This document shows, in pieces, positions 22,672 through 25,321 of a stretch of 64,000 nt of DNA; position 1 is the stretch's first letter; each line of letters opens with the position of its first letter. The notes below the pieces were generated by a model that saw nothing but the letters and a program-made list of their open reading frames with translations, ran no database searches and was not told where the DNA came from. The position numbers were made by a program, and so were the translations under genes. Source of the DNA: an uncultured delta proteobacterium (GTDB taxonomy: Bacteria; Desulfobacterota; Desulfobaccia; Desulfobaccales; 0-14-0-80-60-11). The stretch is from NCBI GenBank assembly GCA_963808395.1, contig CAWEFJ010000031.1:190384-254383 (forward strand), written 5' to 3'.

Positions 22672-23037
22672 ATGACTGCTTCCGATAACGAATCTTCGCC
22701 GGAGGAAATCGATGCGGAGATGGCCGAGCGCCTGCGGCCCCTGGTGAACGAAATCCTGGAGATCTTCAACCAGCGGCAAGTCTCACCCGCGGACGCCGGG
22801 ATGGTGGTGCTCTCCCTGACTTACCGGCTGCTGGAGGTCCTGAAAGAGGCCCCGGAGGCCAGGCGCCATTTCATTACCACCCTGATCACCCTGATTAACA
22901 ATTTCTTAACCGGCGAACTCGAATCCGCCAGCGGGACCAGCGGGCGAATTCACGGTGAAGGAAGACTTTTAGACGCTAGTTTCCGACTTTCGGGATGTTA
23001 TCTATGGAAGGCAAGGCCGCGAATATTCTGGAGTTGA
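22672..23037 (+). CDS. Hypothetical small acidic protein
   Basis: 121-aa ORF with coding-like composition and no recognisable motif. Its 3' end overlaps the next gene's start. Confidence 0.3.
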   Translation: MTASDNESSPEEIDAEMAERLRPLVNEILEIFNQRQVSPADAGMVVLSLTYRLLEVLKEAPEARRHFITTLITLINNFLTGELESASGTSGRIHGEGRLLDASFRLSGCYLWKARPRIFWS

Positions 23038-25321
23038 TCGGCCGCACCCCCATGGTGCGCCTGAACCGCCTCAACCCCAATCCCCGGGTCCAGATCTACG
23101 TCAAACTGGAATACTTCAACCCCGGGGGCTCAGTCAAAGACCGGCCGGCCCTGGCCATGATCGAGGCGGCTGAGGCGGCGGGCGAGCTCACCCCGGAGAA
23201 GACCGTCCTGGAAGCCACCAGCGGCAACACCGGCATCGGGCTGGCCCTGGTATGCGCCGTCAAAGGCTACCGGCTGCTGCTGGCCATGCCCGAATCCGCC
23301 TCCCTGGAGCGCAAAAGGATTCTCAAGGCCATGGGGGCCGAGCTCCTCCTCACCCCGGCCCATCTGGGCACCGATGGCTCCATCGAGGAGGTCTATCGCC
23401 TGAGCCGGGAAGACCCGGAAAAATATTTTCTGGCGGATCAGTTCAACAACCCGGTCAACCCTGCGGCCCACCGGGCCACCGCCCAGGAGATCTGGGAGCA
23501 GAGCGGCGGCCGGGTCACCATGGTGGTGGCCACCCTGGGCACCAGCGGTACGGTCATGGGCCTGTACCGCTATCTGAAGGAGTTTAATCCGGCCATCCGG
23601 GTGGTGGCGGTGGAACCCTTCCTGGGCCATGCCATCCAGGGTTTGAAAAACATGAAGGAGTCTTATAAGCCGGGAATCTTCGACAAGGGCCGGACCGACG
23701 CCATCGTCAATATCGAGGATGAAGAGGCCTATGAGACCGCCCGGCGCCTGGCCCGGCAGGAGGGCCTGTTTCTGGGGATGAGCTCCGGGGCCGCAGTGGC
23801 CGTAGCCCTCCGCCAGGCCCGGGAGATGACGGAGGGCTTCATCGTGGCCATCGCCCCGGACGGCGGCGAACGTTATCTCTCCACCCAACTGTTCGTGGAG
23901 AAGGAGGTCCCCAGCCTCCGCTTTTACAACACCCTGGCCCGGGCCAAGGAGGCCTTCCAACCCCGGCGCCCGGGGGAGGCGGCCATCTTCACCGACGGCC
24001 CGGCCCTTTACAGCAACCTCTCCCTGGGGATGGCCCGGCGCCTGCTGCTGGCCGACCTCCTGGGCCGCTATCTCACCTCCCGGGGCCTCAAGGTGCGCCA
24101 GGTGGTGAGCCTCATCGACCTGGACGACCGCGCCATCGCCGGGGCCGAAGCCGCGGGCCAGGACTTGCCCCAGTTCACCGGCCGCTACCAGCGGGAGTTC
24201 TTTGAGGACCTGCGGGCCTTGCGCCTCCGGGAGGGAGTCCTTTATCCCCTGGCCTCGGACCATATCGAGGAGATGGTCGGCTCTCACCCGCAAACTCCTG
24301 GAGCGGGGCTTCGCCTATGAAAAGCTGCGCTCCGTCTATTTCGACATCTCCCGTTTCAAGGACTACGGCCGCCTCTCCGGCGTGGACCTGAGCAAGATCC
24401 GGGTGGGCAAAACCGTGGACCTGGACGAATACGCCAAGGAAAACCCCCGGGATTTCACCCTGCTGAAACGGGCCAAGCTTGCGGAGCTGAAGAAGGGCCT
24501 CTATCATTCGACTCCCTGGGGCCAGGTGCGCCCCAGTTGGCACCTGGAGAGCGCCGCCATGGCCTTGAAGCACCTGAAGGAGACCGTGGACTTCCACGTG
24601 GGCGGGGTGGAGTCCCTTTTCCCCCACGATGAGAACGAGAACGCCCTGTTCGGCGCGGCCACCGGCAACCCCCTGGCCCACTGCCTGGCTCCACTGCGAA
24701 CGGGTGCTCAAGGAGGGCCGGCCCCTGAAGGACGAGGCCGCGGTCGCGGTCCGGGACCTCACCGCCCAGGGCTTCAGCGGCGCGGACCTGCGCTTCTTCC
24801 TGCTGGCCACCCACTACCGCAAACCCCTGGCCTTCACCCTGGAGAACCTCAAGGCCGCGGCCCAGGCCCGGGCCAGATTGGACCACTTCCTGGCGCGCCT
24901 TTCCCTGGCAGCCGAAGACCGGCCCGCCGACAGCGCCATCGAAGAGCGCCTCTTCCAGTTGAAAAAGGAGTTCGTCGCCTCTCTGGAGGACGACCTCAAC
25001 ATCTCCCGGGTGCTCTCCGGCCTCTTCGCCCTGGTGGGGGATCTCAACGCCGACCTGGACCGGGGCAGACTGGGGCGGGGAGCCGCGGCCGCGGTCGGCA
25101 ACCGGCTCCGGGAGCTGGACGAAGTGCTGGGGGTGATGAACCCGCCGCCGCCAGCCGCCGCGACCCGGGACGAGGAGATCGAGGCGAAGGTGCAGGCCCG
25201 GGAAGAGGCCCGCCGGCGCCGGGATTGGACCGCCGCCGATGAGATCAGGCAAGAACTGGCCCAACAGGGCGTCGAGATCACCGACACCCCCGGCGGCCCC
25301 CACTGGCGCCGCCGGGGCTGA
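22995..25321 (+). CDS. Fusion of cysteine synthase (CysK/CysM-type PLP enzyme) with a catalytically degenerate cysteinyl-tRNA-synthetase-like domain (two frame changes as assembled)
   Basis: - N-terminal ~300 aa is CysK-like: PGGSVKDRPA, TSGNTGIGLA, GTSGTVMG.
- From LRFYNTLARAKEAFQP onward it is colinear with CysRS.
- HIGH is replaced by NLSLGM, WHIECSAM by WHLESAAM, FPHHENE by FPHDENE, and there is no KMSKS.
- The C-terminal helical/anticodon-binding part is retained.
- Frame changes are at ~24279 and ~24690. Confidence 0.75.

Follow-up and report, generated by a model that had tools for sequence, protein, structure and literature searches.

A CysM-type cysteine synthase fused to a cysteinyl-tRNA synthetase-like region without adenylation motifs in a Desulfobaccales bacterium

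Introduction

The subject of this study is a gene found in a stretch of 64,000 nucleotides, here called the window, from an uncultured delta proteobacterium of the Desulfobaccales (GenBank assembly GCA_963808395.1, contig CAWEFJ010000031.1, positions 190,384 to 254,383 of the forward strand). The gene (window 23004-25321, plus strand) encodes, after removal of a single T at 24282 and another at 24682, a protein of 771 amino acids (aa) in which a CysM-type cysteine synthase domain dependent on pyridoxal phosphate (PLP) is joined by a linker of 7 residues to a full-length region resembling cysteinyl-tRNA synthetase (CysRS). The loss of synthetase hallmarks in this region reads as selective and not total: the adenylation motifs are gone and the tRNA-binding half is kept. 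The model which we favour, and to which we give an even chance, is that the adenylation-dead CysRS half binds tRNA(Cys) and regulates or tethers the cysteine synthase.

The model supposes that the ancestor was a bifunctional CysM-CysRS which would hand newly made cysteine directly to tRNA charging. In this lineage the synthetase half would have become a pseudoenzyme, keeping the binding of tRNA(Cys) and giving up the activation of cysteine, and would now regulate or tether the cysteine synthase domain, for example by reporting uncharged tRNA(Cys). Cys-tRNA for translation would be supplied by a separate enzyme encoded elsewhere in the genome. The model borrows from GCN2, whose HisRS-like domain acts through binding uncharged tRNA, and more loosely from HisZ, a dead HisRS paralogue which regulates the first enzyme of histidine synthesis; both are analogies only, the synthetase class and family being different.

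The gene and its two frame changes

Three overlapping open reading frames (ORFs) at 22995-25321 of the plus strand, in frames 0, 1 and 2, form one continuous reading according to the ORF listing and the three-frame translation. The first-pass annotation, a reading of the sequence made without database searches, had taken them for one CysK/CysM-CysRS-like gene starting at 22995. The single gene is borne out; the start codon is likely to be the ATG at 23004 (MEGK..., as in all relatives). The joined translation matches the Pfam families PALP (E = 6e-72), tRNA-synt_1e (E = 5.8e-62), DALR_2 and CysS_C. The alignment with CysK/CysM stops at ...ERYLSTxLF, and LRFYNTL aligns from residue 2 of E. coli CysRS, which bounds the linker, the least conserved segment of the protein. 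The CysRS-like region is colinear with solved CysRS structures from residue 2 through the last residue (HMMER). In an AlphaFold model of the protein (pLDDT 73, pTM 0.56) Foldseek recovers the two known folds separately, CysRS (1u0b, tRNA-bound, the best match) and CysM (2jc3).

The two frame changes are most likely sequence or assembly errors, the gene being real and intact in a Desulfobaccales bacterium, because relatives of about 95% identity are intact and neighbouring essential genes are broken alike. The best database relatives are 94% identical proteins encoded by uninterrupted ORFs of 770 aa, with no stop between the halves, in metagenome-assembled genomes (MAGs) of Desulfobaccales (e.g. 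P0001). Over the fusion gene the loci of four relatives (L001-L004) have 94.7% DNA identity to the window, and the only indels are the two T's and one in-frame insertion of 3 nt. Neither T is within a homopolymer or a slippery site, and when both are deleted the reading frame is clean for 771 codons. The genes for IleRS, a GlnRS/GluRS-type synthetase and a Ppx-GppA protein are broken by uncompensated single-base insertions of the same type relative to close relatives, and an HdrA-like gene is split by such insertions as well, each of the four genes being spread over two or three frames (Table 1). We estimate the rate of frameshifts in the window at about 1 per 2 kb over about 14.5 kb of alignable coding sequence. 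Since essential synthetases cannot all be pseudogenes, the breaks are a property of the assembly, and the window stems from an error-prone one.

Two biological explanations of the frame changes were considered. A programmed frameshift was rejected, since there is no slippery or homopolymer site, the relatives lack the insertions and nearby essential genes are similarly broken. The other is that the T insertions are real and mark a recently inactivated copy, a pseudogene. The window as given does hold two +1 frame changes with stop codons in each continuing frame; against this, the frame is otherwise clean, the ratio of nonsynonymous to synonymous substitution rates (dN/dS) relative to the nearest relative is about 0.2, and insertions of the same kind in IleRS, the GlnRS-type gene, Ppx-GppA and the HdrA-like gene cannot all be biological. 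A pseudogene is in our opinion very improbable.

The cysteine synthase half

The PLP half passes the NCBIfam cysKM subfamily model TIGR01136 (361.8 bits, cut-off 344.15) and falls below both equivalogs, cysM (TIGR01138; 358.7 bits, cut-off 394.2) and cysK (324.7 bits, cut-off 350.95). In PDB it best matches CysK1 of M. tuberculosis and the CysM of E. coli and Salmonella. Behind strand 8 the loop is as long as in CysM, and it aligns without gaps to the CysM proteins of E. coli and M. tuberculosis. Lys215 of the fusion occupies the position of CysM Arg210 in E. coli and Arg220 in M. tuberculosis; the latter residue is tied to the use of O-phosphoserine. With CysM and CysK structures (2BHS, 2Q3B, 3DKI) the half shares the full PALP fold and all residues binding PLP and substrate; what sets it apart is the C-terminal CysRS-like extension of 470 aa, which is absent from characterised CysK and CysM.

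In an alignment of 27 fusions which are about 50% identical overall (A4), there is no variation at the PLP lysine, in the Asn loop or the phosphate loop, or at the serine of GxSSGA. All catalytic residues are thus present, in agreement with the earlier description of this half as normal-looking, and we infer that it is an active beta-replacement enzyme.

What the synthetase half has lost

The CysRS-like half scores below the cut-off of the cysS equivalog TIGR00435 (304.2 bits, cut-off 340). Its motifs were compared between 97 diverse canonical CysRS and 119 Desulfobaccales fusions, using the 90 columns which are at least 85% conserved in the canonical set. The first-pass annotation had listed Asp for the zinc ligand Cys28, SLGM for HIGH, WHLESAAM for WHIECSAM, FPHDENE for FPHHENE and the absence of KMSKS; each of these is present, and neither HIGH nor KMSKS is intact on alignment. 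Among the 119 homologues the His235 column has become Glu or Asp and the K-M-S-K-S columns read P-L-x-E-E. In the catalytic half, up to KMSKS, 25 of the 75 canonical invariants differ, while in the half after KMSKS none of the 15 does (Fisher p = 0.009).

Because HIGH, KMSKS, Cys28 and Thr68 are lost, and lost in a form fixed under selection, established class I enzymology predicts that the domain does not make cysteinyl-adenylate. A housekeeping synthetase role for this half, which had been denied from the start, is very unlikely, since the motif loss is fixed across the clade under purifying selection and the score is below the cysS cut-off. It can be argued that the fusion is nevertheless the cell's CysRS, working with non-canonical motifs: it is colinear with CysRS over the full length, it keeps the anticodon contacts, some members are annotated as cysteine--tRNA ligase (NCBI, JGI), and no second cysS occurs within the 64-kb window, which says little as the window is about 2% of a genome. 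With both class I motifs, Cys28 and Thr68 gone and the score under a curated cut-off, we find this hardly credible; we know of no class I synthetase which works without HIGH and KMSKS.

The claim that every hallmark is lost went too far. It holds for HIGH, KMSKS, Cys28 and Thr68 and fails for Trp205, His206, His234, Glu238 and the anticodon contacts; the equivalents of these four residues, and the HYR motif, are present in the window protein. Its zinc site reads Asp, Ser, His, Glu, and that of the majority of the Desulfobaccales clade Asp, Cys, His, Glu. One could imagine that this remodelled site handles cysteine or persulfide, as a HisZ-like feedback sensor or a site of sulfur transfer. The four kept residues, the Asp in place of Cys28 and the retention of Cys209 in 71% of the 119 homologues are in favour, the fusion sets a cysteine-producing site beside the pocket, and CysRS proteins are reported to make cysteine persulfide in a PLP-dependent manner. 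We give this a slim chance. Two of the four zinc ligands are changed in the window's sub-clade, one of them to Ser, which makes cysteine sensing through the old zinc pocket less likely there; Thr68, which holds the amino group of the substrate, is Ile; and the lysines of KIIK and KMSKS, implicated in the reported persulfide activity, are absent in the fusion. In other subfamilies Cys28 is replaced by Tyr or Glu238 by Val, and because of this variation the pocket is not the conserved feature of the family.

What the synthetase half has kept

The scaffold and a tail resembling the anticodon-binding domain had been described as retained, and this agrees with the DALR_2 and CysS_C matches and with the 15 of 15 C-terminal invariants. 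A 2026 paper (PMC13449415) lists R427, W432, D436 and R439 of E. coli CysRS as contacting the anticodon. On alignment their counterparts in the window protein are R736, W741, D745 and R748 (25211-25249). The equivalents of R427, D436 and R439 are invariant in the 27 fusions of about 50% identity, and that of W432 is Trp in seven of the eight sequences of alignment A1 and Phe in the remaining one.

Purifying selection acts on both halves. Relative to L001 the dN/dS of the window gene is 0.18 in the CysK half and 0.23 in the CysRS-like half, and the ranges are 0.09-0.21 and 0.22-0.36, respectively. The best-conserved segment of the whole protein is the CP insertion (aa 435-511), in which 65% of the columns are invariant in 45 Desulfobaccales sequences, compared with 48% in the PLP domain. 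Conservation of at least 0.9 is found for 47% of the CP-insertion columns in 107 other fusions and for 21% in the 97 canonical CysRS, whose most conserved region is instead the pocket for zinc and cysteine. The insertion carries a 4-residue insert and a family-specific motif, AYEKLRSxYFDI...TVDLDEYxKENPRDFTLxKR. The purifying selection and the conserved CP insertion indicate neofunctionalisation rather than decay.

These data bear on the proposal that the CysRS-like half is a structural remnant which binds nothing specific and is needed for folding, solubility or oligomerisation of the synthase. The patchwork in which HIGH, KMSKS, Cys28 and Glu238 are lost across the family does resemble relaxed catalytic constraint, and the Desulfovibrionales versions are merely 26-29% identical to canonical CysRS. 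A remnant would not be expected to show a dN/dS of 0.22-0.36, a loss restricted to the catalytic half with anticodon-contact residues invariant over about 50% divergence, and a CP insertion more conserved than the catalytic PLP domain. We leave the remnant a modest chance.

A different proposal is that the dead half is a dock which positions tRNA(Cys), that the PLP domain acts on the esterified amino acid in a new SepCysS-independent reaction, and that the CP insertion forms the new catalytic interface. In one version O-phosphoseryl- or O-acetylseryl-tRNA(Cys) would be converted to Cys-tRNA(Cys), much as SepCysS does; in another, Cys-tRNA(Cys) would be the substrate, and its Cys would be modified or transferred. 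A parallel is offered by the cyclodipeptide synthases, which have a class I fold without the ATP motifs and use aminoacyl-tRNA. The anticodon contacts and the tRNA-binding half kept while the ATP motifs are gone, the CP insertion, which faces the acceptor stem in CysRS, as the most conserved region, the CysM-type PLP domain with a basic residue at the position of M. tuberculosis Arg220, and a linker of merely 7 residues all speak for it. On the other side, we know of no fold-type II PLP enzyme acting on aminoacyl-tRNA, and the locus has no linked gene for a mis-acylating enzyme or for tRNA(Cys). Wide surveys of SepRS and SepCysS place bacterial SepRS mainly in Chloroflexi and Parcubacteria; they mention just an aberrant SepRS-like group, possibly from Deltaproteobacteria, they report no SepRS for the lineage of the window, and the 2022 survey contains no 'Desulfo'. 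The chance that we give to such chemistry is small.

We thus return to the tRNA-binding regulatory or tethering module. A conserved function in tRNA(Cys) binding without activation is suggested because the anticodon domain and its contacts are kept across deep divergence, whereas the known CysRS paralogues CysRS* and MshC have dropped that domain. The tRNA-bound CysRS 1u0b, as the best structural match of the model, speaks for the same. A tRNA-linked role is favoured over cysteine sensing because the tRNA-binding half and the anticodon contacts are fully kept and the CP insertion is better conserved than any other part of the protein. Several points weigh against the model. Binding of tRNA and a regulatory effect are predictions, and the AlphaFold model is too uncertain for the inter-domain geometry to be interpreted. 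The conservation of the anticodon domain may partly reflect folding constraints. A simple sensor would not lead one to expect so strongly conserved a CP insertion, which may mean a chemistry not yet imagined; because the regulatory model leaves this conservation unexplained, a tRNA-dependent PLP reaction has to be kept in mind. The separate CysRS was not seen: a tblastn search with canonical CysRS over the window and 92 fetched loci returns the fusion genes only (the window being about 2% of a genome), and a search with P0214 finds a canonical Desulfobacterota CysRS clade and no match named Desulfobaccales. Finally, no cys-regulon, sulfur-carrier, cysE, SepRS-like or tRNA(Cys) gene is linked to the fusion in the window or related loci.

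A family of fusions

The fusion is not an oddity of one genome. The family was searched for by an exhaustive HMMER run against 1.84 billion representatives, by a word-indexed search seeded with P0126 and by a species-representative genome scan, and all searches return PALP-CysRS-like fusions of 758-823 aa. They are found in Desulfobaccales and Desulfobacterales (including Desulfonema ishimotonii, Desulforegula conservatrix, a Desulforapulum autotrophicum MAG, Desulfatibacillum), in Desulfobulbales, Thermosulfurimonas dismutans, T. marina and Desulfovibrionales, and scattered in MAGs affiliated with Myxococcota (one named Myxococcota, one Polyangiaceae) and in archaeal MAGs including Nanoarchaeota. 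The window protein has the family's structure, a single ORF of about 760-820 aa that joins an N-terminal PALP domain to a complete CysRS-like region and carries the CP signature, and it is 71-94% identical to more than 119 full-length members. The species-representative scan with patterns of the CysK half gave, among the matches listed, no Desulfobaccales genome and about 60 plain CysK/CysM loci. In public records (NCBI, JGI) family members are named either 'cysteine synthase' or 'cysteine--tRNA ligase'.

The motifs are lost as a patchwork by subfamily: HIGH lost and KMSRS kept, HIGE kept and KMSKS lost, Cys28 replaced by Tyr, or Glu238 by Val. A few fusions keep every motif (P0121, P0322, P0325, P0375 and P0130, the last a fully canonical protein of 768 aa from a Nanoarchaeota MAG) and could still be bifunctional. 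P0121, P0325, P0375 and P0130 share with the window protein the domain order, the length range and the CP signature and are 38-44% identical to it in the CysRS part; they keep Cys28, H-x-G-x and KMS[KR]S, all three of which are missing in the window's clade. Of the branches of this large, uncharacterised fusion family of Thermodesulfobacteriota, that of the Desulfobaccales is on sequence grounds the most degenerate.

All subfamilies have in common derived residues at near-universal CysRS positions, such as Thr470 for Arg and Leu or Ile548 for Gln. The fusion of T. marina (CP042909; HLGL, KMSVS) lies, in the stretch L092:3827-12337, within about 1.3 kb of ispD and about 5.7 kb of ispF, the vicinity in which cysS is usually located in several other bacteria; it may descend from the housekeeping cysS and may possibly be the only CysRS of the organism. 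A bifunctional CysM-CysRS ancestor is proposed because the intact-motif members, the shared derived residues and this location fit it. The canonical CysRS are all about 36-46% identical to the fused domain, and no sister group is found among them. A neighbour-joining cluster of the degenerate forms was not used, as it may reflect long-branch attraction. The closest stand-alone relative is P0126, and a search with it returns mostly more fusions. P0214 shares the motif MSGA at 164-167 with the CysRS of Desulfomonile tiedjei. Among the proteins encountered, P0203 (711 aa) is a hexapeptide-repeat domain, serine acetyltransferase-like, fused to a canonical CysRS.

Comparison with known systems

The first-pass annotation knew of no characterised member of this architecture, and a full-text search of the literature yields neither one nor a description of PALP-CysRS fusions. 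A 2022 review of synthetase duplications gives CysRS* and MshC as the sole CysRS paralogues.

The canonical enzyme (E. coli CysRS; 1LI5, 1U0B) is colinear with the fusion in the Rossmann fold, CP insertion, SC fold, helical bundle and anticodon-binding domain (E = 8.7e-69). It differs in having HIGH, KMSKS, Cys28 and Thr68 (and Cys209, which the window's sub-clade lacks too), and in lacking the PLP enzyme, the family-specific CP motif and the 4-residue insert. MshC, the cysteine:GlcN-Ins ligase of Actinobacteria, is likewise a CysRS paralogue recruited outside translation; it keeps ATP-dependent ligase chemistry, in contrast to the window protein without HIGH and KMSKS. The solved MshC chains of 413-414 residues align just to residues 5-334 of the 473-residue CysRS-like query, and the window protein scores 130.1 bits with the MshC model TIGR03447 (cut-off 485.1). 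CysRS* is a second CysRS copy in some Desulfobacterales, thus in the same phylum as the fusion. It is without an anticodon-binding domain and is linked to selB*/selC*, and its proposed substrate for charging is a tRNA(Cys) whose anticodon is UCA (Mukai et al. 2017, PMC5389517). The fusion, unlike CysRS*, has the anticodon-binding domain, and its catalytic motifs are gone; neither a selB-like gene nor a selC-like tRNA was found in the window neighbourhood or related loci. In the SepRS-SepCysS-SepCysE transsulfursome a PLP enzyme inserting sulfur is physically coupled to a tRNA(Cys)-binding synthetase scaffold, which is comparable to the fusion; unlike the two halves here, the PLP enzyme SepCysS belongs to fold type I, and the synthetase SepRS is an active enzyme of class II.

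Neighbouring genes and other features of the window

A small ORF lies directly upstream of the fusion; its end is uncertain through further single-base insertions at 22936, 22974 and 22977 (relative to L002). All Desulfobaccales loci examined (L001, L005-L008; A2) have an orthologue upstream of the fusion, at a distance of 30-290 bp. It is the sole conserved neighbour of the fusion in Desulfobaccales, it occurs there alone among the loci examined, and it may be a partner transcribed together with the fusion. Outside Desulfobaccales the fusion is abutted in seven loci, mostly within 5-30 bp, by an unannotated family of 307-370 aa, here called family X, with the motifs P..FPFT (N-terminal) and ER...WARL, which suggests an operon partner of the wider fusion family. 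Neither the small ORF nor any other conserved fusion neighbour in the loci examined has a Pfam or NCBIfam match, and homology of the small ORF to family X was ruled out (hhalign probability 0.1%). A tRNA(Cys) with U73 and the standard anticodon, GCA, is encoded in one of the Desulfobaccales loci.

A gene for a protein of 110 aa with three conserved Cys (MKQY...H..C.PF...RC.C..YA) and no family match recurs at a distance of 1.6-5 kb from the fusion, in loci of Desulfobaccales as well as in distant ones of Desulfobacterales type. An island of low GC (about 0.49) contains a reverse-transcriptase gene (Pfam RVT_1, YIDD motif), adjoined by an IS200-like Y1 transposase gene of the REP-associated type. 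A 21-nt palindromic REP-like element, GTAGGGTGGGCACTGCCCACC, is present in seven copies, apparently intergenic, with 0 expected by chance; two of them flank a tRNA-Pro just downstream of the fusion gene. Another tRNA gene, in a low-GC stretch, is called Ser(ACT) by ARAGORN and scores 63 bits with the Rfam tRNA model. It is not a normal tRNA-Ser, because the variable arm is short; its unusual anticodon could be real, brought in for example by a mobile element, or could stem from an erroneous base inserted in the loop. A second low-GC island (6-12 kb) carries a gene for an N6-adenine DNA methylase of the Eco57I restriction-modification type; the closest relatives have instead, between hpt and the fusion gene, a pair of N6_Mtase and Methylase_S genes.

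Table 1. Positions of the fusion gene, its motifs and other features. Positions refer to the window unless a locus is named; fractions refer to the 119 Desulfobaccales homologues.
Feature	Position	Strand	Remark
CysM-type PLP cysteine synthase domain, aa 1-297	23004-23894	+	PALP match, cysKM score, PDB matches, loop alignments
PLP lysine motif SVKDR	23130-23144	+	present
Asn loop TSGNTG	23217-23234	+	present
Phosphate loop GTSGT	23538-23552	+	present
Short CysM-type loop GLKNMKES	23640-23663	+	present
GMSSGAA (GxSSGA serine)	23775-23795	+	present
Linker VEKEVPS, 7 residues	23895-23915	+	follows the PALP fold and precedes the first CysRS-like strand
CysRS-like segment 1, frame 0	23916-24281	+	N-terminal half of Rossmann fold; HMMER alignments to 8qhp, 3tqo, 1li5; family alignments A1, A3
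Zn-ligand Cys28 to Asp	23994-23996	+	within FTDGPA (23988-24005); Asp in 0.99
HIGH to SLGM	24021-24032	+	first His to Ser in 0.84
NITDIDDKII to SLIDLDDRAI (Thr68 to Ile)	24108-24137	+	Asn-x-Thr68 to Ser-x-Ile, 0.99 and 1.00
Inserted T, first frame change (GGC-T-CTC)	24282	+	L001-L004 read GGC CTC (Gly-Leu)
CysRS-like segment 2, frame 1	24283-24681	+	CP insertion and C-terminal half of Rossmann fold; translation, structure alignments
WHIEC to WHLES	24538-24552	+	within SWHLESAAM (24535-24561); Cys209 to Ser in the window's sub-clade
FPHHENE to FPHDENE	24619-24639	+	within FPHDENENA (24619-24645); alignment to CysRS
Inserted T, second frame change (CAC-T-GCC)	24682	+	L001-L004 read CAC GCC TGG (His-Ala-Trp)
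CysRS-like segment 3, frame 2	24683-25321	+	Pfam DALR_2, CysS_C; alignment to E. coli CysRS 397-461
KMSKS to GRPLKDE	24716-24736	+	K, M, K, S each 100% in the 97 CysRS
Stop codon TGA	25319-25321	+
Small helical ORF, about 75-100 aa	22672-22965	+	directly upstream of fusion; C-terminal end uncertain
Family X	L017:12282-13253, L013:12269-13261, L016:7292-8260, L018:2647-3645, L019:7749-8711, L010:8902-10014, L091:12363-13286
HdrA-like Fe-S flavoprotein gene	12945-17457	+	split
Ppx-GppA	19934-20937	-	frame broken
IleRS	32545-35375	+	split into 32545-33483, 33509-34072, 34053-35375
GlnRS/GluRS-type synthetase	42603-44328	-	split into 42603-43913 and 43789-44328
110-aa Cys protein	30458-30790	-	also L001:16157-16489, L016:10028-10360, L017:13870-14202, L018:7829-8161
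Reverse-transcriptase gene	28188-29792	+	RVT_1
IS200-like Y1 transposase	29826-30353	-	REP-associated type
REP-like element copies	25517-25537, 26054-26074, 31482-31502, 32032-32052, 32277-32297, 42367-42387, 21001-21021
tRNA, Ser(ACT) by ARAGORN	54843-54917	+	short variable arm
N6-adenine DNA methylase / Eco57I-type gene	6728-8317	+	second low-GC island

Implications

Pseudoenzymes derived from synthetases (HisZ, the HisRS-like domain of GCN2, YadB, MshC) have repeatedly exposed links between tRNA, amino-acid supply and regulation. The family described here, which is large and spread widely among Thermodesulfobacteriota with a sulfate or sulfur metabolism, has a cysteine synthase hard-wired to a CysRS scaffold, in which the ATP chemistry is given up to a varying degree and the anticodon-reading residues never are. 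The label 'cysteine--tRNA ligase' is probably wrong for the degenerate clades, and it can mask a missing or differently encoded CysRS in metabolic reconstructions. If the scaffold does bind tRNA(Cys), it would be a bacterial case of direct coupling of tRNA status to the synthesis of the cognate amino acid, and possibly of a new tRNA-dependent sulfur chemistry in organisms which live in sulfide and for which free cysteine is toxic.

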